Shown here piece after piece: positions 2,453-60,941 of a stretch of DNA of 64,000 bases. The stretch is from assembly GCA_964441265.1 (NCBI GenBank), contig CAYYKJ010000007.1:1-64000 (forward strand). The letters are read 5' to 3'. Each line of letters opens with the position of its first letter. Positions within the stretch are counted from its first letter, which is position 1. This DNA comes from an uncultured archaeon (GTDB lineage Archaea > Aenigmatarchaeota > Aenigmatarchaeia > QMZP01 > QMZT01). The notes beneath the pieces are model-generated. The model did no database searches. It saw only the letters and a list, made by a program, of their open reading frames with translations, and was not told the DNA's origin. Position numbers and translations under genes: made by a program.

Positions 2453-2774
2453 CCTTTGACCTCTTTTGAAAATTGAATGTTGAATTTATTAATTTGAATT
2501 ACCGCTTTCCGCATCATTTTTTAAGCTATCCCCACTACTATTTCTTATTGTACGCGGAGGTAACAAAACGGCTATGTGGCCGGCTGCAGTGATCATGTCA
2601 CTGAGGCCATTCGGTATTATGAGACCTGAGGTCTATGACTTGCGGATACCGGCATAAGTGGGTTCGACCGACCCTTTCCTGGTAGCCGAAGGAAAGGGTC
2701 CGAATATCCCACCCTCCGCTTAATACTCCTCAGAATACAGTCTCTATTTAATCGGGCTAACCGATAATATAAAC

Positions 2775-6430: not shown

Positions 6431-7455
6431 GCTATAGATATAATTCGTGCGTATAGATGAGAGCTTGACACCGGCTCCCGGCGACGGGAGCGTTAAGTTT
6501 GAGGTAGGAGAATGCAAAACCCTTGTTGAAGCTCATATGAGGAGCTTTATGCGTAACGCCAATCCCAATTCCGGCTGATCCTGCCGGAGGCCACTGCTAT
6601 TCGGATTTGGCTAAGCCATGCTCGTTCTGGGTTAAACCAGAGCAAAGAGCTCAGTAACACGTAGTCAACCTGCCCTTGGGTCCGGACGAATCTCGGGAAA
6701 CTGAGGATAATGCCGGATAGGCAAAAAGATCTGGAAACGTGTGACAACTTGGATTTCAATCACGAGTTGTCCTTCGCCGGTTTGACTTTTTGTCCAACCA
6801 AGGATGGGACTGCGGCTGATTAGGTTGTTGCCAGGCTAAAATGGACTGACGTTCATTTCGAATGTCTTTCTTTAGATTCCTGGCAAGCCGATAATCAGTA
6901 CGGGCCTTGAGAGAGGAAGCCCGGAGATGGATTCTGAGACAAGAATCCAGGCCCTACGGGGTGCAGCAGGCGCGAAACTTTCCCAATGTGCGCAAGCATG
7001 AGGAAGAGATCCGGAGTGTTCTCCTTTTGGGGGAACTTTTGTCAAGTCCAAAAAAGATTGACGGCTGATTCTGTGAATCCATGCCGTCGCTCTGTGGTTA
7101 GCTTGGCGAATAAGTGGTGGGTAATACGGGTGCCAGCCGCCGCGGTAATACCCGAGCCACAAGTGGTGGCCACGTTTATTGGGCTTAAAGTGTTCGTAGC
7201 CGGTTCTGCCAGTCCTTGGTGAAATCATCTGGTAAACCAGGTGGCTTGCTGAGGATACTACAGGACTTGGGACCGGGAGAGGTCAAGGGTACTGACGGGG
7301 TAGGGGTAAAAAGCGATTGTTGACCCGGATTTTTCTGATCAGGTCAACCTTCCTTACATTCCTATAATCCTGTCAGGACCACCAGTGGCGAAGGCGCTTG
7401 ACTAGAACGGATCCGACGGTGAGGGACGAAAGCCAGGGGATCGAATGGGATTAGA

Positions 7456-7799
7456 TATGGGTTCAGGAAAAGGTATTTATTTCCAGTAATTAACTATAAA
7501 TAGATTAGAATGCCCAGTATTTCAAGTGATATTTGTAGGATGACTCTGAAGGACATATCAGTAAAAGGCAAGCGGAAATTGATTTCACAACAACTTCGAA
7601 GGAGATTTGCCAATATATACTTGAATATTTTAAAATAATTGGACTAAAAACAAGTGGCAGAGTCAGAAGCCGAAGAAAGAACAGGGAGTACGAAATAAGG
7701 ATATACGGCAAGGAAAATTTAATACTTTTTTCAAAACATGTCAAGATAAAACATCCTGATAAAATTGCCAGAATGAAGAAATTCCTGTCCCACTAAAAA
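7456..7799 (+). mobile_element. 16S intron 1 with decayed LAGLIDADG endonuclease remnant
   Basis: Inserted after GGATTAGATA and AT-rich. Two short out-of-frame reading frames resemble homing-endonuclease fragments (…EICQYILEYFKIIGLKTSGRV…EYEIRIYGKENLILF…). Confidence 0.45.
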
Positions 7800-8061
7800 C
7801 CCCAGTAGTCCTGGCTGTAAACGATACCCACTAGACATTAGGGATCTTACGTGGGTTCCTGGTGTCGCAGGAAAACCGCTAAGTGGGTCGCCTGGGAAGT
7901 ACGGTCGCAAGGCTGAAACTTAAGGGAATTGGCGGGGGAGCACACAAGGGGTGGAGGCTGCGGTTCAATTCGATTCAACGCGGGGAACCTTACCAGAGGC
8001 GAGGCAGGCACTCACTGTCACTAATGGTAAGGTTTATTAGCACCGTAATCAACAATTAAAC

Positions 8062-8640
8062 ATGAGGAACATAGCAGACCTCTCAAAAATAACACCGAAA
8101 GAAAGGGGATACCTGATTGGATTTTACATCGGAGACGGTAACATATTTGAACAAAATTCTTCAGGGATTTACAGGCTCAGATATTTTCTCGGCCTTAAAG
8201 AAAAACCAATACAGGAATCCCTTGTTGAAATATTGTCCAAGTTATTTGCGAATATAAGGACCTACGATGGACAGGGAAATACAATTGTAATTGAAATTCA
8301 TTCAAAACAGTTCATAACTTGGGTGAAAAACAACTGTACAAAGGATGGGATTAAAAACAAAAGCTCATCTAAAAGATTCAAAATTGGTGTTATAGAGGGT
8401 CTGATAGACAGCGATGGATATGTTCAAAGAAACTATGTTGAGATAACAACTGTCAATGAGAAACTGCGAAAAAATATTATTGAAATTTTGAGCGGTTTCA
8501 AAACAAAACCAAATGTTAGAAGTTATTCTTCTCCAATTTCCGGAAGAACCGGATGGAGAGTTGGTTTTTCTTTAAAAAACGGTGCTTTTAAACCTACCAA
8601 GTGGGTTCTTGCCCCTCAAACAGCAGAAAATGCTGCGTAA
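8062..8640 (+). CDS. LAGLIDADG homing endonuclease (double-motif) in 16S intron 2
   Basis: LIGFYIGDGNI and IEGLIDSDGYV motifs. Lies inside a 16S insertion (~8013-8679). Confidence 0.8.
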   Translation: MRNIADLSKITPKERGYLIGFYIGDGNIFEQNSSGIYRLRYFLGLKEKPIQESLVEILSKLFANIRTYDGQGNTIVIEIHSKQFITWVKNNCTKDGIKNKSSSKRFKIGVIEGLIDSDGYVQRNYVEITTVNEKLRKNIIEILSGFKTKPNVRSYSSPISGRTGWRVGFSLKNGAFKPTKWVLAPQTAENAA

Positions 8641-8795
8641 GGTTTACCATGAAGACATACCGTGCGCGCATCTGCAATGAAGGTCAGGTTGAAGGCCTTA
8701 CCAGACAAGCTGAGAAGTAGTGCATGGCCGTCGTCATTCCACGAGGGCAAAACCGGCATCTGATATTCTTCTTTTCGTCCGAAAAGCAGATAAGG

Positions 8796-9368
8796 ATGCC
8801 TCCCGAATTAAGAATCATGAAAACTGTTGGTTTTCAGAAAAAACAAATCAAATGCTCCGAAAATGATGCCTATATTTTAGGATTGTTTAGGGCAGACGGG
8901 TATACTTGGACAGGAACATTCGGAATAACTAATAGAAATCAGAAAATATTAGAAAAAGCTGCAAAAATCCTTTCAAAATTCGGCCAAAACAAATGGAGAA
9001 ATGATGAGAAAGGATTTTTCAGGGTTTGCATAACAAGTAGGCCCAGAAAAAGGGAATTTCTGAAGGCAATGGAAAATACAGAAAAATCATTAATTGATAA
9101 CAAATTAATGATTGCATCATATTTCGCAGGTAAATATGATGGAGATGGTTCTTATTGGAAAAAAACAAGACTGAGGTTCAAAATAACATACGGGAAACCT
9201 GAAAATATAGAATTTGATCAAAAGCTATTGCTCTCCGTTGGTATTTCAAGTAAAATAAGAAAATATAAAAATGCAAATGCATTTGACCTTGAAATATCAA
9301 GTGGTGATGCTTTAGCATTTTTTGACCTGATAAAAAATATTCGATTAAATGTCCTCTTGGAACGATAA
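8796..9368 (+). CDS. LAGLIDADG homing endonuclease (double-motif) in 16S intron 3
   Basis: ILGLFRADGYT and YFAGKYDGDGSY motifs. The ORF track starts at 8724 inside the exon; internal Met 8796 is more likely. Confidence 0.7.
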   Translation: MPPELRIMKTVGFQKKQIKCSENDAYILGLFRADGYTWTGTFGITNRNQKILEKAAKILSKFGQNKWRNDEKGFFRVCITSRPRKREFLKAMENTEKSLIDNKLMIASYFAGKYDGDGSYWKKTRLRFKITYGKPENIEFDQKLLLSVGISSKIRKYKNANAFDLEISSGDALAFFDLIKNIRLNVLLER

Positions 9369-9927
9369 AGTTCGTGCCGTGAGAGCTTGATGCTTTCATG
9401 TCATAAAGTGCCATGTTCCGGTAAAGGTGTCGTCTTAAGTGACGTAACGAACAAGACCCATACCTCATGTTGCTATCCAACTCTGTCGGAGCACTCATGA
9501 GGGACCGCTGGCGATAAGCCAGAGGAAGGTGTGGTCGACGGCAGGTCCGTATGCCCTGAATCCTCTGGGTAACACGCGGCCTACAATGGATGGGACAATG
9601 GGATGCCACTCCGAAAGGAGGAGCTAATCCTTCAAACCCATTCCTGGTCCGGATCGAGGGCTGCAACCCGCCCTCGTGAAGCCGAAATCCCTAGTAGTCG
9701 CTGGTTAGCAAGTGCGAAAGTCGCCGCGAAAGCGGTAGCGCTTTCGGGTCTAAAATCTAGCGTCGAATAAGTTCCTGCTCCTTGCACACACTGCCCGTCA
9801 AGCCATCCGAGTGGAGTTTTGGCGAGGTCTTCCCTTCGGGGAGGATCAAACCACAACTTTGCAAGGAGGGCTAACTCCAATAGTAATATTTTGGAGAACA
9901 ATTATTATTGGGGGCCTAAAGTCGTAA

Positions 9928-10067
9928 AATGGCTAGATGGGCAATTTGAGAAGTCGCAAAACGATTTCTATGACATCTATAACGTGTGTATAAACGGATG
10001 AAGCCTAGCTTGTAGCGCTTCATCAGACTCATGTATAGTTAGGAATATCATCTAGCTGTTCGATAAA
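9928..10067 (+). mobile_element. small ORF-less intron near 16S 3' end
   Basis: A ~140 nt insertion separates AAGTCGTAA from CAAGGTAGCCGTA. Confidence 0.4.
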
Positions 10068-10196
10068 CAAGGTAGCCGTACGGGAACGTGCGGCTGGATC
10101 ACCTCCTTATATATTTCGAATGACAACTTATTTCGAAAATTTAGGTTGTCTCTCGAAACATTCAACAGGGTGCATACTTCTCCTACCGCAAAAATC

Positions 10197-10402
10197 GGGC
10201 CGGTAGATCAACGGTGCGTTTCAAAAGGGAGCTGACATTTCACCCCACAACGAAACGTTTCGGGGTGTTGTGGGTCAATCGCTCCCGCTGCGTTAAAGAT
10301 CGCTGCCCTTGCAAGGCAGAGGCTTCGGGTTCAAAGCGACCCTTTTGCTCAAAGAAGAAACAGCTGATGCTTGCGGGGGTCGGGAAAATCCCGACCGGTC
10401 CA
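10197..10402 (+). tRNA. tRNA-Ala(TGC) in the 16S-23S spacer with two non-canonical introns (D-loop and T-loop)
   Basis: Acceptor GGGCCGG/CCGGTCC with G3:U70 and A73. D-stem GATC/GATC. Anticodon arm CTGCC-CTTGCAA-GGCAG. T-stem TCGGG/CCCGA with the T-loop TTCAAA...T split by an insertion. Confidence 0.6.
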
Positions 10403-12005
10403 TGAGAAATTGCATGGCGGGTCCGCCGGAGAGCAAATCCGGGCCGGGCTGGCCGCATTCGCGCACGTAAATATTTAAATATATAGTAACATATAATACA
10501 TGCTCTCTGCAGCCGTGCAGGGCTGGGAGGGCCAAATCGAATGCATTGGTTGACTATCAGACTGTTCAGAGTCGGTCACGCCCCGGTGACAGCGGGCTTG
10601 GTTGGCAGGCAGATAGTCGAGGCGACTCGGTATCTATTTTCTGGACAGTTTCGGGAATACCATGCTTGTAATGTTGAAATGAGGCTCGTTACTGCAAATA
10701 ACGGGCTGATTTGAGAAGGATGATGACCACTTTGACGGTCACGTGAGCACCGGCATAGCAGGGCGCGCCTCGGCGGGCCGTGTTACCGGCTGCGATGAAA
10801 GAGTGAACACCATTAGAGTCCTTTGATGATTCCATAGGCGAGTTGTCCCGACCACAAGGGTCTGTTACGCTGCATGGTGGCTGACTTGGCTCGGAAAACG
10901 AAGAGGGACGTGGCAAGCTGCGAAAAGCCCGGGGTAGGTGCAAGCAGCCTTTGAACCCGGGATTTCCTAATGGGACTTCCCAGCATTTGCTATTCGCAAT
11001 AGCGAAGGTTGACGGCCTGGATTGAAACATCTTATTAGGGCCAGGAAGAGAAAGCAATCGCGATTCCCTGAGTAAAGGCGATCGAAAGGGGAACAGGACA
11101 AACCGAATCCCCTATTGAGAGATAGGGGACATGTGGGGTTTGGACCTGCGCTCGGCCCAACTTCCCAACCCGAAGTGACCTGGAACGGTTCACGACAAAG
11201 GGTGAGAGTCCCGTAGGGATAAGGAAGAGGGTTGATATCAGGTATCCGGAGTACCGTTGGTTGGAAATCCAGCGGGAATGCGGGAGACACTAACTCCCAA
11301 TCCTAAACATAATCCGAGTCCGATAGCGTACTAGTACGGTGACGGAAAGTCGAAAAGCATCCTTAACAGGAGCTGAAAAGAGCCTAAAGCCATGTAGTTA
11401 TAGGTTGGTAAGGCACATGCTTGCATGTGTTTTGCCGTCCGTTTTGAAACACGCGGCAAGGAGTTTATCTCCGTGGCGAGGATAACGTGATGGTATCCAT
11501 AGCGAAAGCGAGAACCCCGCAGCTTGCGAGGGGGTCAGGTGTGAAAGCGCCTACAGTCACGGGGATAATACCTGAAGCCGGTCGATCTAGCCCTGGGCAG
11601 GGTGAAGTCTAGCGAAAGCTGGATGGAGGCCCGTTACCGTTGCTGAGATTCAAATCGCTCAGGTGACCTGGGGCTAGGAGTGAAAATGGGGTGACGGCCA
11701 GAATTCATCTGTTTAGGCCGTCGTTCCTTCAACGCTAATCGAGATCGGCAATAGCTGGTTCCTCTCTAAATGTATCTGAGTACAGCCTGGCCGGAGGTAG
11801 AATATGGGGTAAAGATACTGATTGCGTAACCAAGGATCGAAAGGTCCAGTTGTGCTGTCAAACTCAGAATCCATGTTCGCCGTAGAAGGCTGGAGTGGGG
11901 GTGCCGGGGTAAGCTCGGTATCCGAAAGGGAAAGAACCCAGACTGAAGTTAAGGTCCCTAAATGTTGTCTAATCGAAGAAAAGCGTCATCAACCATAAAC
12001 AATAG

Positions 12006-12037
<32 letters not shown>

Positions 12038-12404
12038 CGAGCGAAGGCTTGGATTTATCGGATTAAGCCTTCATTCGAAAGAGAGAGTGTGTAATAACTC
12101 ACCTATCTAGGTTGATGGCCTTGAAAATGGACGGGACTAAGGCAACTACCGATACTTTGGATCACGAAAGTGATAGCGTAGGGAGGTGTCCTGCTGGGGC
12201 AGAAGTTCTTCCGTAAGGGGGAATGGACCTTGCAGGAATAAGAATCTTGCTGATAGTAGCAGCACTAGTGGAGTGAGAATCTCCACCACCTAAAGGGCTA
12301 GGGTTCCTCAGCAACGATTAAAAGCTTGACGCTGAATGGTCAGCGTCGGTTTGTCGAATCAGCTGAGGGTTAGTCGGTCCTAAGGCGTCTCCTAACCGGA
12401 GGAT

Positions 12405-12436
<32 letters not shown>

Positions 12437-13090
12437 CATGGAAGTACGTGCGGCGACGCAAGCCCGGTTCCAGACTTTTCGGGATAGGCTGACCATTTCG
12501 ATGGTTAACCCGTTAAGCCTGCGGAGTACCGTAATGGTGAGAAGCAGGTGAAGCGGGGAATAGCCCGTGTATTCGGGTTTGGCTGAATCCTGGAAACCGT
12601 GAAAATGGAAACGGGAAGGATCTTTCATGTCCGTACCGAGAACCGTTACTGGTGACCCTTGCTGAAAAGGTTAAGGTGTATTAGGTTAAATTACCCTAGG
12701 GAATTCGGCAAATTAGCCCCGAATCTTTGGTATGAGGGGTGCCTAGTCCCTTGGCTCAGCCAAGAAGACTAGGTCGCAGTGACAAGGGGGGTCCGACTGT
12801 TTAACAAATGGGAAGCGCAGATTTAATGATTATCTGTTCTTTTCGTGCTTCAGTCGGAAATCGAACCCTCGGACAGGCCAAGTTAGTATGAAAGGACGTT
12901 TTTACAAATTTCAAACTTTCCGTTCTTCCCAGTTAAAAAACATAGGGGGCTGCTAGTCGGAAACGATTTGTATAGCTCCTGAGGCCTGCCCAGTGCGAGT
13001 GTGTCAAGCTGGACTTCAATCCAGTGAAGCCCTCGTAAACGGCGGCGGTAACTCTGACCGTTGACTTAGGCGGTCACAAAATTTGGCTAT

Positions 13091-13738
13091 ATGCGGGAAC
13101 TCCATAGTATTCCGGGTCCTGAGAAAGGAAAAATCCCGGAAACGATGACGGATAATCCGCAGGAAACTGTTTGCTTCATGGGGGTGGTTACCATGAAGAA
13201 AGTCGAACAAGGGTTTAGTAAACTCTTGAGAAAAAAGCGTTACCTGAGATTTTATATCTTGGGTTTCGTTGATGCCGAAGGTTGTTTTAGTGTGTCATTG
13301 AAGCAACAGAAAACGACGAGATTCGGCTGGGTATTGGATCCGTTATTCCAGGTAACTCAACACAAAAATAACAGGATTGTACTCGAAAAGATAAAAGGAG
13401 AATTGGGTTGCGGAAGGATAATTGATAAACCCGGTCAAAAAGATACACTGATATATTTGGTTGATAACCGAAGACAACTGAACGAGAAAATAATTCCCTT
13501 CTTTGAAAAGTACAGGCTTGTTTCGAAGGACAGTGATTTCCAGAAATTCAAGAGAATCGTCAGAGGACTTGAAAAAAAGGAACACGGCGAATTGGAATCT
13601 TTCTTGAAACTGATCAAAAAAGCCTTCGAAATGAATCTGGGAGGGAAACAAAGAAGATACAAACTCGAAGAAGTCTTGAAAAAATTGGGAAGCAGACAGA
13701 ATCCCCAGAGGCCATACGCCAGACACTCAAGTGAGTGA
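13091..13738 (+). CDS. LAGLIDADG homing endonuclease (single-motif) in 23S intron
   Basis: ILGFVDAEGCF motif; the ORF lies inside a 23S insertion. The true start may be an internal Met. Confidence 0.75.
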   Translation: MRELHSIPGPEKGKIPETMTDNPQETVCFMGVVTMKKVEQGFSKLLRKKRYLRFYILGFVDAEGCFSVSLKQQKTTRFGWVLDPLFQVTQHKNNRIVLEKIKGELGCGRIIDKPGQKDTLIYLVDNRRQLNEKIIPFFEKYRLVSKDSDFQKFKRIVRGLEKKEHGELESFLKLIKKAFEMNLGGKQRRYKLEEVLKKLGSRQNPQRPYARHSSE

Positions 13739-14398
13739 AGATATGGTCCGACTCTTACAGTAATGTAAGTAAGTTGCTTAAGGTAGCGTAGTCCCTTGCC
13801 GATTAATTGTCGGCCTGCATCAAGGGCTTAACGAGATCCCCGCTGTCCTGGGGTAATGCCTAGTGAAATTAATTGTCCAGTGCATATTCTGGAGACCTTC
13901 AGTGGGACGAGAAGACCCCATTGAGCTTTACTGCAGTCTACTGCTGTGATATGATAATGGTTGCACAGTGTAGGTGGGAGCGTCGAACCCGCGTCTTTGG
14001 GTGCGGGGAATGCGACAATGTAACACCACCCTACCGTTCTCATATTGCTTATCCTTCGGGAGACACCAGTTGATGGGCAGTTTGGCTGGGGCGGTACGCC
14101 TCTGATAAGGGATCAGAGGTGCCCTAAGTTCGGCTCATTCCGGTCAGAAATCGGAATTAGAGTGCAAGAGCAAAAGCCGGACTGATAGGATTCTGCAAAG
14201 TGAGGAATCCTAACGCGAAAGCGTGGTCTAGCGATCCGCTGTGTCTTTATTAGATGAAAGCCAGCTCTGACAGAAAAGTTACCATGGGGATAATCAACCA
14301 GAGAGTTGATAGGTTTTGAAAGCCATGTCAGGGGATATCTTTTCCTTTCTGTATTTTGAGACGAAAGTAAGATAAATCCCATTAATGAAATAATAAGC

Positions 14399-14953
14399 AT
14401 GGATTTGATTGAAAAGGGATTCGTTTTCGGTGCCAGCGAAGACGGAACTGTTTACCATAGACCTTCAAGAAATCAATATAACATAGAAATCGAGCAGAAA
14501 GTTCAAAAATGGCTTGAGATTGTGAAGAAAGCAGTGCAGAAAACATATAACAAAAACGTGAGGATAGCAAGGACTTCTAAAGGTTATTTCAGGTTGCTTG
14601 TTTATTCCAAAAAACTGCATAATGATCTCAAATCTTTCAGAAAGGATTATTCGAAAATCCTAACCGAAAACAAAGACTTCCAGACCGGCTTCCTTCGCGG
14701 ATTTTTTGATGCGGAGGGAACGGTCCACAACAAAAGATATTCGATTAGGGTGGCATCGAAGAATAAGCAAACAATCCTTGTAATCAAGAAAATGCTTAAT
14801 AAATTCAATATTAAAACCGGTAAAATTCATGCCGATAAGACGGCATATGTTTTGCCTCTGTACGGAAAAGATAATCTAGAAAGATTCGATTCCGTTGTCA
14901 GTTTTAGACATGAAGAAAAGAAAGAAAGACTTTCAAAACTTCTCTCTGGTTGA
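14399..14953 (+). CDS. LAGLIDADG homing endonuclease (single-motif) in 23S intron
   Basis: LRGFFDAEGTV motif; inserted after GGGGATAA in 23S domain V. Confidence 0.75.
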   Translation: MDLIEKGFVFGASEDGTVYHRPSRNQYNIEIEQKVQKWLEIVKKAVQKTYNKNVRIARTSKGYFRLLVYSKKLHNDLKSFRKDYSKILTENKDFQTGFLRGFFDAEGTVHNKRYSIRVASKNKQTILVIKKMLNKFNIKTGKIHADKTAYVLPLYGKDNLERFDSVVSFRHEEKKERLSKLLSG

Positions 14954-15525
14954 TCCCGAAAATGGAGTCGTGACGCGTGAGAGTCCATAGCGTCATAACT
15001 TGGTTAACTTTCTAAAAGGTCTTTGATTTCCAAGTTAGACATGGATATATCGACCGCGTTCGTTGCTTCTCCGCCGTCGGCTCGGCTCTTCCTGGACGTG
15101 CAGCAGCGTCCAAGGGTGGGGGTGTTCACCCATCAAAGAGCCACGTTAGCTGGGTTAAATACGGTGCGAGCCAGTATGGTCTATATCTACTGAAGGTGTC
15201 GGGAACCTGAGGGGAAGAAGCACTCAGTACGAAAGGAACAGTGCATCGTGGCCTCTGGTGTACCAGTTGTGTATACATCGCTGGGTAGCTATGCCATTGT
15301 GGATAAGGGCTGAAAGCATCTAAGCTCGAAGCCGCTCCCGAAAATAGGTTCCCACTCCTCAAACTGATTGGCAACAACCGGTGCGAGGGAAAGGATCCGG
15401 TATACGACCGGGTTGATAGAATCGGGGTGTAAGTACCGAGGCAACGAGGTATTCAGCCTACGATCACTAATACTCCAAATGGCCCTGGTTAAAGGGACAA
15501 CTCGCCGCTATTATTTTTTTATCAT

Positions 15526-15786
15526 TTGCCCCGCTTAGCCACAGCTTTAATCTATTTAAGTTTCCGGCAAGAAATATTCATCATGATAGAGCTAAAAAAG
15601 AACCAGTGGTTCTCGATCGTTCTGTTCCTGATGGTGATATACGAGGTGATCTTCGGGTTCACCATGAACATGACCGGTTCCACCTACTTCCAGATGAACC
15701 AGCTGTACATATGGGTATTGTTCCTCATAGTGGTGACCCTCACCCTCTCGTTCTACTTCTGGAGCAGGGAATCGAGACTTTACTAG
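15526..15786 (+). CDS. hypothetical small membrane protein
   Basis: Two hydrophobic helices; weak support. Confidence 0.3.
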   Translation: MPRLATALIYLSFRQEIFIMIELKKNQWFSIVLFLMVIYEVIFGFTMNMTGSTYFQMNQLYIWVLFLIVVTLTLSFYFWSRESRLY

Positions 15787-17744: not shown

Positions 17745-18115
17745 CAAGTTGAGCTGGGTAGATAGCTCCCCGGCCGTTCAGAGGGCTGTTCAGCCCCGAA
17801 CAGAGGCCGGGAGGAAGCTCCATTCACCCATACAAGGTAATGCCGGAAGGCATGGGCCGGGAGGCCCCCACAGGACACAGAAAAGACCGGCGCGGCAGAG
17901 CCATGATGCTTACGGTAGAACGGTTAAACCTGTTCTGATCCGGGCTGAGCGGGGAGGCCGATGCCGGGTGAAATAATCCGTGGTGCCGGGTGCAAGCCGG
18001 CTAAAAGCGGGCCGGACAGCAGGTCGTTCAACCGTCTAGACCGACTGGCCAGAGGCGCTCAGAAAAATGCTATCACCCCGTCCAGGGTTAGATGTTTGGT
18101 CCCTGCGGGATGACA
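17745..18115. ncRNA. candidate structured RNA (GC-rich island in AT-rich intergenic; RNase P RNA- or SRP RNA-like motifs but not assignable)
   Basis: Nested stems (GAGCT…AGCTC, CCGGCC…GGCCGG, CTGTTC…GAACAG) and an AUGCC-GGAA-GGCAU tetraloop hairpin. Motifs GGAAGCUCCAU, ACAGAAAAGACCGGC and GGGUGAAAU are present. No plausible ORF. Confidence 0.35.
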
Positions 18116-18176
18116 AAAAATGGGCTATTCCCAGCACAACTATTTCCTTTTTAAGATTTGATTTCGAGTTTTTATC

Positions 18177-20907: not shown

Positions 20908-21147
20908 TGGGCCCGACGGGAATTCCACGTTGCCTTTTTGGCAGGCGTAGGTTTTGTGACCTGCGCCAGCGTCCGTAAAAGCTACGCTTCGAACCCGCGA
21001 CACCCGGATATCTCCAGCGAAAGAAGCGCCGTTGCGCCTCTTGCCTTGTCATCCCCGTTAAGGTCATCATATCCGATAAGAGTCCGGTGCTCTAAATGTC
21101 CGGAAGTCCGCTTATGCGGAAAACCCGCCAGACTGAGCTACGGGCCC
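20908..21147 (-). tRNA. tRNA-Lys(CTT) with three introns (D-loop, anticodon loop 37/38, T-loop)
   Basis: Minus strand: GGGCCCG-TA-GCTC-AGTCTGG[intron]TAGAGC-A-CCGGA-CTCTTA[intron]A-TCCGG-GTGTC-GCGGG-TTCGAA[intron]T-CCCGT-CGGGCCC-A. The seven acceptor pairs are complementary. Confidence 0.55.
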
Positions 21148-48253: not shown

Positions 48254-48447
48254 GGGGTTATGGTGTAGCTTGGTCTAGCTGATCCCTGGTGGGACAGGCG
48301 CCAAAAGCATCGGAGCTTCGGGCCAATTCCGCTCTAACGGGCGGGATAGCGAAACGGCTTCAGACCTGGGTTCAAAAGCGCGGTAATCGAAACAACTGTT
48401 TCCGCGGGGAATATTCCCGCCTGCGCGGACATTCCCAGTAACCCCAT
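48254..48447 (+). tRNA. tRNA-like gene with T-loop intron (and further insertions); anticodon unresolved
   Basis: Acceptor GGGGTTA/TAACCCC. T-arm CTGGG-TTCAAA[intron]T-CCCAG. D-loop-like AGCTTGGTCTAGC. ~118 nt of extra sequence. Confidence 0.4.
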
Positions 48448-55695: not shown

Positions 55696-56292
55696 ATGAT
55701 AAGGGCGGTAATATTCGACATGGGTGGAGTGATGGTCAAAAACAAATCAGAGGCGGTTTTCAGCAGACTCGCAGAGAAACTGGGCGTCGATCCCGCTTCT
55801 TTGGACGATTTGCGAAAGGAAAATTACCGGGAGATGCTGATAGGGGAAAAATCTTCGAGGCAGTTTGCAGAGATGATCAGCCGGCGTTTTAATCTCAGTG
55901 CCGATGTTATCGGGGAATGGAAGAAATCCTATTTAGAAGTGATGCCGGTAAACGAAGATCTTGCCGAGATGACTGGGAGCTTAAAGAGAATATATAAAGT
56001 GGCGATTATTTCGAACGTCCCTGATCTGCATGCTGACATTAATAAAAAGAGAGGCGTTTTTTCTCATTTCGAGCCGGCATTGATATCCTGCGACGTAGGT
56101 ATGGCCAAGCCCGATAGGGGAATATTCGAACTCGCCCTGGAAAAACTGGACATGAAAGCTGAAGAATGCATTTTCATCGACGATCGCGAGAAGTTTCTGA
56201 AGACTCCGGAAGAGATGGGCTTCCGCACGATACACTTCCGGAGCAACGGGCAATTGAAGAAAGATCTTGTGAAACTCGGGGTTCAGATTTAA
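55696..56292 (+). CDS. HAD-superfamily hydrolase, subfamily IA
   Basis: Motif I FDMGGV, motif II S/T (ISN), motif III K…, motif IV DD. Confidence 0.75.
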   Translation: MIRAVIFDMGGVMVKNKSEAVFSRLAEKLGVDPASLDDLRKENYREMLIGEKSSRQFAEMISRRFNLSADVIGEWKKSYLEVMPVNEDLAEMTGSLKRIYKVAIISNVPDLHADINKKRGVFSHFEPALISCDVGMAKPDRGIFELALEKLDMKAEECIFIDDREKFLKTPEEMGFRTIHFRSNGQLKKDLVKLGVQI

Positions 56293-56333
56293 AAGAATTC
56301 ATTCCCATTCTATACCACCGGGAGAGGGGTGAC

Positions 56334-57830
56334 ATGTTTTCTGAGGAAGACCGGAAGATTCTGGAGAATCACGTGACCAGTATAGACGGGGATATATACG
56401 CGATTTACAACCTCCCTCCCGAAGTGGTCGCCGTTCTTTTCGCCTACGTCTCCCGCTCGCCGGCGAGCTTCAGGGAGAACCTGCTCAAGCTGATAAAGAG
56501 CAGGGACCTCGACATGGGGGAACTGATCACCAGTTTCCGGAGGAAGGGGATGGATTACGGGGAGGCGAAGGAGAAGGCCAGGAAATTCCACGAGAAATGG
56601 GTCGTTGGATACGGCCACTCCTCCGTGGCCGAGCACGCCTTCGCAAGCATAGCCATAGAGAACGTGTCCATTCTCGCCACCAAGGTGATCGAGGACAACC
56701 GCCTGGCCTCCTACACCGAGAAGTCCACCAGATACCAGGTTTTCGACAGGGACAGGTACTACAAACCCGGAAGGATCATGGATTCGGAATTCTCCGGGGA
56801 GTATGAAGACTTCTGCAATTCACTTTTCGGTTTCTACACGGAAAACATGCCAAAGGTGATCGGCCATTTCAAGAAGGCCCATCCGAAACCGGAGGACATG
56901 AGCGAAAGGTTGTACGAATCCGTCTCCAAGGCGAGGGCCTGCGACGTCATGAGGTATGCCCTCCCGGCGGCCACCCTGACGAACCTGGGCATGACCATAA
57001 ACGCCCGCTCTCTGGAGCACGCCATCCGGAAACTGCTCTCCCATCCCCTGCGGGAGATGAACGAGACGGGGAAGGGAATCAGGGGGGAGGTCACCAAGAT
57101 CATCCCCACACTGGTGAAATACGCGGACAGGAACGAGTATATCGCTGAAACGAACAATGCGATGAAATCCTTCGGGATGGGCGGGGATCGGGAAGAGGGG
57201 AAGGCGGTCTCGCTGGTGGAATACGACAGGGAAGCGGAAGAAAAGCTCGTCTCGGCTATCCTGTACAGATATTCAAAAAGGTCCTATGGTCAGATAAAAG
57301 AATCGGTTAAAAAAATGCCTGCGGGAGAGAAGGAGGAAGTGATCGATGAGTTCCTGAAGAGGATGGAGAAGCACGACATTCCCATGCGTGAGCTGGAGCA
57401 CGTTTACTACACCTTCGACATCCTGTTGGACTACGGGGCATTCAGGGACATACAGCGCCACAGGATGTGCACCCAGACAAACCAGGAGCTGGGCACGGGT
57501 CATGGATATTCGGTACCCAAGGAGATGGAAGAGGTCGGGATAAAGGAAGGATTCACGGATCTCATGGAAAGGGCCAAGGAGCTGTTCGGTAAGATTTCAA
57601 GGAAGTTCCCCAAGGAGGCGCAGTATCTGGTCCCTCTCGCCTTCCGCAAGCGCGTTCTGATCACCTGGAACCTCAGGGAGCTGTTCTATTTCGTGCGCCT
57701 GCGCTCCGGCAAGGGGGGCCACGAATCCTACAGAAAAATCGCCTGCCGGGTATATGATGAGCTCGAAAAGGTTCATCCCCTTATGGCGAAGTACATCACG
57801 GTAGAAAGAATTAATGGTCCTGCAAGGTAG
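56334..57830 (+). CDS. tandem ThyX-like (flavin-dependent thymidylate synthase family) protein
   Basis: Half 1 has GHSSVAEHAFASIAIENVS…DNRLASYTEKSTRY (RHR replaced by DNR). Half 2 has FRDIQRHRMCTQTNQ (RHR present, SxRY missing). The ORF track starts at 56166, overlapping the HAD gene; Met 56334 is more likely. Confidence 0.5.
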   Translation: MFSEEDRKILENHVTSIDGDIYAIYNLPPEVVAVLFAYVSRSPASFRENLLKLIKSRDLDMGELITSFRRKGMDYGEAKEKARKFHEKWVVGYGHSSVAEHAFASIAIENVSILATKVIEDNRLASYTEKSTRYQVFDRDRYYKPGRIMDSEFSGEYEDFCNSLFGFYTENMPKVIGHFKKAHPKPEDMSERLYESVSKARACDVMRYALPAATLTNLGMTINARSLEHAIRKLLSHPLREMNETGKGIRGEVTKIIPTLVKYADRNEYIAETNNAMKSFGMGGDREEGKAVSLVEYDREAEEKLVSAILYRYSKRSYGQIKESVKKMPAGEKEEVIDEFLKRMEKHDIPMRELEHVYYTFDILLDYGAFRDIQRHRMCTQTNQELGTGHGYSVPKEMEEVGIKEGFTDLMERAKELFGKISRKFPKEAQYLVPLAFRKRVLITWNLRELFYFVRLRSGKGGHESYRKIACRVYDELEKVHPLMAKYITVERINGPAR

Positions 57831-59886: not shown

Positions 59887-60267
59887 TTACTTCAGGGGCA
59901 CGAACTTGCTCGAGCGCGTGGCACCGAATCCTGGGGCGGAGTGCTGCACCTTCTTCCTGGTCTGGGAAAATTCTCCCAGCCGGTGCCCGAGCATTTCGGG
60001 TGTGACCTCAACGGTTACATACTCCTTTCCGTTGTGCACCCCGATCTTCTCGCCTGTCATCTCAGGAAGTATTATCATTTCCCGGCAGGTGGTCCTGTGA
60101 AATTTTCCGGGCTTTTTCTTTATTTTCTCCAGAAGTTTCTTCTGGTTCTCTGTCATTCCCCTCTTCAGGGACCTCCTCATCCTTGAGGGGAGCATCTCGC
60201 TGAATTCAGCCGTGCTCATCTTCCTTATCTCCTCCATGTCCCTTCCGCGGTAGCTTTCCTTTGGCAT
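59887..60267 (-). CDS. rps19: ribosomal protein S19 (uS19)
   Basis: MPKESYRGRDMEEI…GVHNGKEYVTVEVTPEMLGHRLGEF. The ORF track extends the N-terminus spuriously to 60582. Confidence 0.85.
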   Translation of the reverse strand: MPKESYRGRDMEEIRKMSTAEFSEMLPSRMRRSLKRGMTENQKKLLEKIKKKPGKFHRTTCREMIILPEMTGEKIGVHNGKEYVTVEVTPEMLGHRLGEFSQTRKKVQHSAPGFGATRSSKFVPLK

Positions 60268-60272
60268 AACCA

Positions 60273-60941
60273 TCACTTTCCTGCCCTCTTCCCTGTTCTC
60301 CTGGCTCCCCATGAACCCACCTTTGCGCCCGGAGGCGCATGCCTGCTGGTGGTAGTCGGCTTTCCGGGCCCGGTCGGCCCTCCGAACGGGTGGTCTATGG
60401 CGTTCATGGCGACGCCGGACGTCCTCGGATAAAGCTTGCCCTTCCTGTGCATTATGATCCATTTCTTGCCTGCTTTGACCAGGGGCTTTTCGATGTGGCC
60501 TCCGCCTGCAGGCACCCCCGTGCTTGCCCTGCAATCGGTGTGGAAGGTCTTCTTTTTTTTCGATGACAGCTGGACAACGCATTTCTTCCCGCTCTTCGAA
60601 ACTATGGTCCCGAAAGATCCCGCGGTCCTGCAGAATTTCGGTCCCGAATTGGGGGATGATTCTATGGCAAAGATCGAAGCCCCTATTGGAGCATCTCCAA
60701 GGGTCGAGATGAATCCGGTGTCATCGCCGGTCTTGATTCCCAGGGGGGCCAGCAGATAGTTGCTGCTGCCGTCCTGATATTTCACCCTGGCGAGGGGGGT
60801 CCTTCTCGAGGGGTCGTTCACTATATCGACCACCTTTCCCTTTTCTTTCCTGTAGGACAGTCTGGTGTCTAACCTTCTCTTGCGGGCCCTGTATGTGGGG
60901 GTCCCTCTTCCTCTCCTCTGGGGTATCAGTCTCCTGCCCAT
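60273..60941 (-). CDS. rpl2: ribosomal protein L2 (uL2)
   Basis: GRRLIPQRRGRG…HRKGKLYPRTSGVAMNAIDHPFGG. Confidence 0.85.
   Translation of the reverse strand: MGRRLIPQRRGRGTPTYRARKRRLDTRLSYRKEKGKVVDIVNDPSRRTPLARVKYQDGSSNYLLAPLGIKTGDDTGFISTLGDAPIGASIFAIESSPNSGPKFCRTAGSFGTIVSKSGKKCVVQLSSKKKKTFHTDCRASTGVPAGGGHIEKPLVKAGKKWIIMHRKGKLYPRTSGVAMNAIDHPFGGPTGPGKPTTTSRHAPPGAKVGSWGARRTGKRAGK

Follow-up and report, generated by a model that had tools for sequence, protein, structure and literature searches.

The 16S–23S spacer of the archaeal rRNA operon described here raises the question of whether a 206-nt stretch, in which the parts of a tRNA-Ala are separated by intervening sequence, is a gene that can be matured by splicing or the remains of one. 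The stretch belongs to a window of 64 kb, this being the whole stretch of DNA that was analyzed, and is located between the 3′ end of the 16S rRNA (GGATCACCTCC, 10097–10107) and the start of the 23S rRNA at ~10800–10853. It had been read in the initial annotation as a spacer tRNA-Ala(UGC) that folds only after the removal of about 130 nt, of which a block of ~70 nt would lie in the D-loop and a block of ~55 nt in the T-loop between positions 59 and 60; a search for BHB motifs at each junction was named beforehand as the test that could refute this reading. The features of the window are collected in Table 1.

In its unspliced form the gene is not recognized by the usual tRNA finders. ARAGORN returned no tRNAs from the unspliced sequence across the entire 64-kb window, and no tRNA-Ala was obtained when it was applied to the unspliced gene with or without the intron option and with lowered thresholds; a tRNA-Pro match that it gave on the unspliced gene at the 80% threshold was rejected as spurious. 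The Rfam tRNA model (gathering and E-value thresholds) reached only 16.8 bits on the unspliced gene, and this in a wrong register. Splice variants were then enumerated by taking one block out of the D-loop region and one out of the T-loop region, and 1536 of the 5796 variants were called tRNA-Ala(TGC) by ARAGORN, none being assigned to any other isotype. The check with ARAGORN that had been proposed initially is thus blind to the unspliced gene, but it does give tRNA-Ala(tgc) for the 72-nt spliced product (GGGCCGGTAGATCAACGGTAGATCGCTGCCCTTGCAAGGCAGAGGCTTCGGGTTCAAATCCCGACCGGTCCA). This product folds into a canonical cloverleaf of −30.6 kcal/mol, which is within 0.8 kcal/mol of its MFE structure (−31.4 kcal/mol). 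The elements that had been pointed out at the outset are all present: G3 (10199) pairs with U70 (10399), A73 corresponds to 10402, the anticodon is of the NGC type within the expected arm, and the T-loop is broken as TTCAAA/.../T. The two introns add up to 134 nt; the block in the D-loop is longer than had been thought, and the one in the T-loop slightly shorter, its site at 59/60 having been placed correctly. CCA is absent from the gene, which is directly followed by TGAG. Since all three exons are colinear within the 206 nt, the gene is neither split nor permuted.

Table 1. Features of the window (a slash within a bulge marks the cut)
Feature	Coordinates	Strand	Details
tRNA-Ala(UGC) gene	10197-10402	+	206 nt; exons 1 to 3, separated by introns 1 and 2
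Exon 1	10197-10215	+	tRNA positions 1-20; acceptor GGGCCGG, U8, A9, D-stem GATC, D-loop AACGGT
Intron 1	10216-10296	+	81 nt; position 20/21, D-loop
Exon 2	10297-10335	+	tRNA positions 21-59; A21, D-stem 3′ strand GATC, G26
Exon 2, anticodon arm	within 10297-10335	+	CTGCC-CTTGCAA-GGCAG; anticodon TGC at 10310-10312
Exon 2, 3′ half	within 10297-10335	+	variable loop AGGCT, T-stem TCGGG, T-loop TTCAAA
Intron 2	10336-10388	+	53 nt; position 59/60, T-loop
Exon 3	10389-10402	+	tRNA positions 60-73; U60, T-stem CCCGA, acceptor CCGGTCC, A73
Intron 1 BHB			outer helix D-stem GATC:GATC, 4 bp; central helix AACG:CGTT, 4 of 4 pairs; bulges GT/G and AA/A
Intron 2 BHB			outer helix T-stem TCGGG:CCCGA, 5 bp; central helix TTCA:GGAA; bulges AA/G and AA/T
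tRNA-Cys(GCA)	2554-2720	+	U73; introns 2590-2647 (37/38, 58 nt) and 2669-2706 (59/60, 38 nt)
tRNA-Pro(CGG)	48254-48446	+	introns 48277-48305 (D-loop, just before A21), 48323-48355 (37/38) and 48377-48432 (59/60)
tRNA-Lys(CUU)	20908-21147	-	introns ~21097-21126 (D-loop), 21010-21076 (37/38, 67 nt) and 20922-20987 (59/60, 66 nt)
16S 3′ processing-stem strand	10160-10192	+	pairs with 6498-6530; ends 4 nt before tRNA-Ala
16S rRNA	6557-10117		Rfam match 6568-9917, ending early
23S rRNA	10790-15527		Rfam match 10853-15490
RNase P RNA (archaeal)	17757-18131	+	74 bits against the Rfam gathering score of 84; 375 nt over a 288-position model

A canonical BHB has two 3-nt bulges on opposite strands with a 4-bp helix between them, and is cut after the second nucleotide of each bulge. 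The geometry that was looked for on each strand, from 5′ to 3′, was a helix, the 4-nt central helix, the 3-nt bulge and another helix, and both junctions of the tRNA-Ala gene fit it in the correct register. The test named in advance therefore came out in favor of two non-canonical BHB introns, of which the first interrupts the D-loop and the second the T-loop, precisely at 59/60, and the motifs are accompanied by orthologue boundaries and by compensatory changes in relatives, as described below. At intron 1 the inner helix adjacent to the 5′ splice site consists of two pairs only (C-G and G.U), and this site is a relaxed (hBH-type) motif; further inside, the intron contains the hairpins GGGAGC/GCTCCC and CCCACAAC/GTTGTGGG. 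In intron 2 three of the four central pairs are formed, the fourth being an A.G mismatch, and the inner helix, CGACCC:GGGTCG, has six Watson–Crick pairs followed by two G.U pairs. When the introns were shuffled, with the splice sites fixed via homologues, the observed BHB pairing was equaled in 0.12% of cases for intron 1 and in 0.012% for intron 2. An unconstrained MFE fold of the 206-nt precursor (z-score of −3.5 versus shuffles) recovered the acceptor stem, the D-stem, the AACG:CGUU helix and the AAA bulge. A chance origin is unlikely, because shuffles rarely match the BHB pairing and because the fold of the precursor recovers the helices.

The exon boundaries could be set independently, because orthologues with one intron or none (L006, L009, L036 and others) display the junctions. 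Five intronless genes (L006, L009, L013, L017 and L019) read GGGCCGGTAGATCAACGGTAGATCGC..., precisely as the predicted removal of intron 1 would leave the exons joined. Exon 1 is identical to their 5′ part as well as to that of L036. The D-loop of these intronless relatives, AACGGTA, fixes the boundary of intron 1 at 20/21, the sole cut that produces it. The T-loop is less straightforward, since the insertion is flanked by runs of A (AAA/G...AAAA/T) and the registers 56/57, 57/58, 58/59 and 59/60 all give TTCAAAT. By sequence these four solutions are equivalent, and one might therefore suppose that the tRNA-Ala and its introns are real but that other bonds are cut, either at one of the first three T-loop registers or elsewhere within the relaxed motif of the D-loop; the mismatched fourth central pair of intron 2 and the weak inner helix of intron 1 would be in keeping with this. 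However, only 59/60 gives two 3-nt bulges beside the central helix with the cut falling behind the second nucleotide in each, and 20/21 alone gives the D-loop found in the relatives. The T-loop register is set without ambiguity by the tRNA-Cys gene of the same window, TTCGAC/.../T, for which 59/60 is the sole solution and whose spliced T-loop, TTCGACT, is that of the uninterrupted L002 orthologue. A different register is accordingly considered very unlikely.

Relatives of the gene were collected by scanning one genome per species with the exon-2 pattern, which gave 29 loci, mostly from MAGs of Aenigmatarchaeota and other DPANN with some from Thermoplasmata, and by scanning metagenomes with an exon-only pattern, which gave 20 more; a metagenome scan for the exon 1/intron 1 junction GGGCCGGTAGATCAACGGTG yielded no match. 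The rRNA exons of the window are most similar to those of the Aenigmatarchaeota type, the 23S identity being 78% to L002 and 82% to L036, and the organism thus sits close to that phylum as a rather divergent member of DPANN. L036, a metagenome contig, is the closest relative found: its D-loop AACGGTA is uninterrupted, its 59/60 intron, of 43 nt, is unrelated to that of the window, it matches exon 2 at 100% over 39 nt, and its spliced gene gives a mature 72-mer identical to that of the window. Among the 36 distinct tRNA-Ala genes that were compared, with the window’s own included, 19 have an intron at 59/60. An intron at 20/21 was seen in five genomes, namely that of the window and L010, L012, L016 and L028; in the last four it is 11 to 58 nt long. 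Aenigmatarchaeota-type spacer tRNA-Ala genes, in which the number of introns ranges from zero to two and their sites are fixed, offer a clean natural series for following intron gain and loss and the specificity of the endonuclease. In a separate group, the Thermoplasmata/DHVE2 MAGs L008, L014, L015, L020 and L026, one or two extra tRNA-Ala 3′ ends (..CCTCCCGCCCGGTCCA) occur 60–130 nt downstream of the intact gene, and these copies resemble the duplicated attachment sites that an element leaves on integrating into a tRNA gene.

The comparison also allowed the motifs themselves to be followed. When 19 T-loop junctions, those of the tRNA-Cys, tRNA-Pro and tRNA-Lys genes of the window among them, were aligned in a fixed register, 82% of the cells paired, as against 26–58% with the partners slid, and none of 500 shuffles scored as high in covariation as the observed alignment. 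Compensatory changes occur at five of the six pairs of the inner helix, with 52 cells in which both sides have changed. Position 57, which belongs to the fourth central pair, has no partner in 11 of the 19 junctions, so that the effective motif in the T-loop has three central pairs. At 20/21 the central helix of the four other genomes reads AGCG:CGCT, AATG:CATT, AGTG:CATT and AGTG:CACT, covarying with the D-loop, and two of its four pairs covary across the five genomes. The BHB is therefore kept in the homologues through compensatory changes while the sequence and the length of the introns drift.

Such conservation bears on the suspicion that the spacer gene is a decaying pseudogene, hit by two random insertions and never matured, with alanine being decoded via another copy. 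Some Aenigmatarchaeota-type genomes do have an intronless tRNA-Ala(UGC) outside the spacer, and the failure of the standard finders to see the window gene would also fit. Decay, however, should not have left the exons undamaged and their product equal to that of L036, nor would random insertions be expected in exact BHB register at both sites, or at sites at which introns with compensatory changes recur in many genomes. Every one of the window’s four tRNA genes is broken up in this manner, and since they cannot all be decaying, a pseudogene is very unlikely.

The three other genes came to light in a search of the 64-kb window for complementarity of the T-arm and the acceptor stem, and their products, spliced in silico, were all accepted by ARAGORN as tRNA-Cys, tRNA-Pro and tRNA-Lys. 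The tRNA-Cys gene, which in unspliced form was missed by both ARAGORN and Rfam, has at 59/60 a perfect hBHBh′ motif with the central helix TTCG:CGAA and a 10-bp inner helix. In the tRNA-Pro gene the first two introns were obtained from an automated enumeration of BHB motifs and the third, in the T-loop, was placed by hand; its junction there is a relaxed BHB with two of the four central pairs. The boundaries of the D-loop intron of tRNA-Lys are uncertain, an orthologue being lacking and the outer helix weak. The window as a whole contains ten introns in four tRNA genes, i.e., 2.5 per gene, and the 59/60 site is interrupted in four of four. As all four genes need the removal of a 59/60 intron, the organism must be able to splice such sites. 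A Pfam scan of 57 ORFs of the window turned up neither an EndA (tRNA_int_endo) nor an RtcB domain. Candidate tRNAs other than tRNA-Ala with a T-loop broken at about 59/60 were also noticed in the DPANN loci L005, L018, L022, L028 and L043.

The 5′ ends of the T-loop introns were compared between the tRNA-Ala (10336–10348) and tRNA-Cys (2669–2680) genes of the window and the loci L011, L035 and L037. A motif, CGACCC(T/G), is common to the introns of tRNA-Ala (GCGACCCTTTTGC), tRNA-Cys (CGACCCTTTCC) and the tRNA-Ala of L011 (AGCGACCCGAAGG), and this sharing may reflect a common origin or movement of the intron from one tRNA gene to another.

The density seen in the window may extend to the rest of the genome. 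It is conceivable, at somewhat less than even chances, that nearly every tRNA gene of this DPANN lineage has an intron at 59/60, with further introns in many of them directly ahead of A21 and at 37/38. If so, it would be the highest tRNA intron load known, with ~2.5 introns per gene (from the four genes of the window) against a published maximum of 1.5, and BHB splicing would be obligatory before any tRNA could fold its elbow.

Larger insertions are found in the rRNA genes of the same operon. The 16S has about four (7458–7792, 8003–8675, 8737–9426 and 9878–10035), the last of which is the reason why the Rfam 16S match stops at 9917, and the 23S has about three (12809–12935, 13062–13776 and 14294–15046). 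LAGLIDADG ORFs are present in four of the rRNA insertions (8062–8640, 8724–9368, 13091–13738 and 14399–14953). One LAGLIDADG ORF of the window was matched only by a 2.7-kb Logan contig of run SRR7048220, and exact look-ups of the window’s S-layer-like protein and EF-2 gave no match. Within the 23S insertion that has a LAGLIDADG_1 ORF, a weak match to group I introns was obtained at 13495–13770 (+; 33 bits, E of 1e-4, below the gathering score). Group I introns have been reported in archaea (PMC6125680), and some of the rRNA introns of the window may be of group I instead of BHB type.

With such neighbors, it could be asked whether the two insertions in the tRNA-Ala gene are themselves self-splicing group I or group II introns, or small mobile elements. 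The core of a group I ribozyme exceeds ~200 nt, and inserts of 81 and 53 nt are far below this size; Rfam gave only chance-level matches in 10100–10860 at E values up to 10, none of them to an intron family, and both inserts have the BHB geometry. Self-splicing or mobility is therefore scarcely credible for these two inserts. The euryarchaeal tRNA-Trp intron, by comparison, encodes a C/D box sRNA, with a C box (RUGAUGA) and a D box (CUGA) at the ends of the intron and a guide segment. A role of the two introns as a C/D box sRNA or as a member of another Rfam family was considered and rejected, no match to a snoRNA family being found in 10216–10296 or 10336–10388. The CTGATGC of intron 2 is confined to the 3′ part and does not amount to a C...D arrangement, and the sole C/D match in the spacer (sR17, 10675–10748) is at the level of chance in Rfam. 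Elsewhere in the window, the 37/38 intron of tRNA-Lys has a C-box-like heptamer, ATGATGA, and a D box was not found in it.

The stretch is thus very probably a functional, colinear spacer tRNA-Ala(UGC) gene of an uncultured DPANN archaeon with two BHB introns, at 20/21 and 59/60. The boundaries, the BHB geometry, the cloverleaf with its alanine identity elements, and the conservation and covariation of the two sites are seen in the sequence and in the comparison with relatives; the splicing itself is predicted. From what is known of RNA processing in archaea, the tRNA-Ala would be transcribed together with the 16S rRNA. The processing stem of the 16S, whose 6498–6512 and 10178–10192 portions form an inverted repeat of 93% complementarity, has a BHB-like motif of its own when the two flanks are folded together, with the central helix AUGCA:UGCAU and the bulges AAAC and ACU. 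EndA would cut this stem as well as the four intron bulges, each 3-nt bulge being opened behind its second nucleotide, and the three exons would then be joined by RtcB. The 5′ end would be trimmed by RNase P and the 3′ end by tRNase Z, and CCA would be added post-transcriptionally. The D- and T-loops of a tRNA lock its elbow, and with introns in both of these loops the L-shape would be formed only after splicing. The 59/60 intron was present in 18 of the 23 distinct spacer tRNA-Ala genes (from DPANN and Thermoplasmata MAGs) and in 1 of the 13 located elsewhere, a comparison that is uncorrected for phylogeny and for the search pattern and that hints at a role in coupling the processing of pre-rRNA and tRNA.

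Several other features of the window were noted. Downstream of the tRNA-Ala gene there is a GC-rich hairpin region (10415–10458), followed at ~10474–10481 by an AT-rich box of the TTTAAATA type; similar boxes occupy the corresponding location in L002 and L010, which suggests that this may be an internal promoter of the 23S’s own. The archaeal RNase P RNA, which scores below its gathering threshold, is either divergent or itself contains an insertion. Two ORFs are oversized: one of 554 aa (56166–57830, +) has two ThyX (Thy1) stretches and is about twice the usual length, and one of 231 aa (59887–60582, −) has a ribosomal S19 domain confined to its C-terminal third. A fusion, a misassigned start codon or an insertion could account for either.

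Neither ARAGORN nor the Rfam tRNA model detected any of the window’s four tRNA genes in unspliced form, and this has consequences for the way in which tRNA sets of DPANN are counted. The “missing” tRNAs of these archaea are still put down to lost or split genes (PMC5829648; bioRxiv 10.64898/2026.05.13.725050). Kaneta et al. 2018 took incomplete tRNA sets to point to undetected disrupted genes and found markedly more disrupted tRNA genes in DPANN lineages with an L3-loop EndA (PMC5829648). Loci like the spacer tRNA-Ala indicate that part of the gap consists of hidden multi-intron genes. In the likeness to ARMAN-2 and other DPANN with broad-specificity EndAs (PMC3239211, PMC5829648), the window shares the disrupted genes, the relaxed BHB motifs and the incomplete predicted tRNA sets.

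The initial annotation had held that multiple introns at non-canonical positions are known from only a few archaeal lineages, which understates their spread. Non-canonical introns have been reported in Thermoproteales, Thaumarchaeota, Korarchaeota, Nanoarchaeota, ARMAN, other DPANN and Asgard (PMC3218864, PMC5829648), and the literature documents multiple and non-canonical BHB introns thoroughly for Thermoproteales and for several more phyla (PMC3218864, PMC4033280, PMC8450103). The closest parallel is with Thermoproteales such as P. calidifontis, P. aerophilum and Thermofilum pendens (Sugahara 2008; Chan 2011, PMC3218864; PMC8450103), in which short non-canonical BHB introns, including those in the D- and T-loops, are removed by EndA, occur up to three per gene, defeat simple finders and vary fast in presence among relatives. 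The window lineage, in contrast, is a DPANN near Aenigmatarchaeota and not a crenarchaeon, and its gene is in the rRNA spacer. Its intron sites are concentrated (59/60 in four of four genes, just before A21 in at least two), whereas those of Thermoproteales are scattered, and the predicted type of its endonuclease probably differs from theirs. The published maximum is that of Pyrobaculum calidifontis, with 71 introns in 46 genes, the mean for Thermoproteales being 0.84 per gene (PMC8450103); the 2.5 introns per gene of the window exceed this, but come from only four genes.

The 59/60 site itself is a documented BHB junction, known from the permuted tRNAs of T. pendens and the red alga Cyanidioschyzon merolae (PMC3218864), in which a BHB around T-loop 59/60 is likewise processed by the splicing endonuclease. 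Unlike in those genes, the exons of the window are colinear, an ordinary intron is predicted to be excised, and there would be no circular tRNA-body intermediate. No description of introns in Aenigmatarchaeota-type spacer tRNA-Ala genes, or of a recurrent 59/60 site, was found in the literature searched, where the strings “59/60” and “20/21” are unsearchable. The occurrence of 59/60 in yet another lineage, the third and a distant one, adds to the argument for a preferred BHB insertion point in the T-loop. Of interest to the specialist are this fixed site, the local density of introns, and the failure of both ARAGORN and the Rfam tRNA model.

The intronless spacer tRNA-Ala(UGC) of Euryarchaeota, finally, resembles the window gene in its 16S–23S position, its isoacceptor, its identity elements, its release from the pre-rRNA and its processing stems with a BHB. 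It differs in that the window gene is interrupted twice and would need two extra splicing events to mature. The tRNA-Ala of the window is, then, a known kind of archaeal gene structure, with a conventional mechanism and unusually dense introns.
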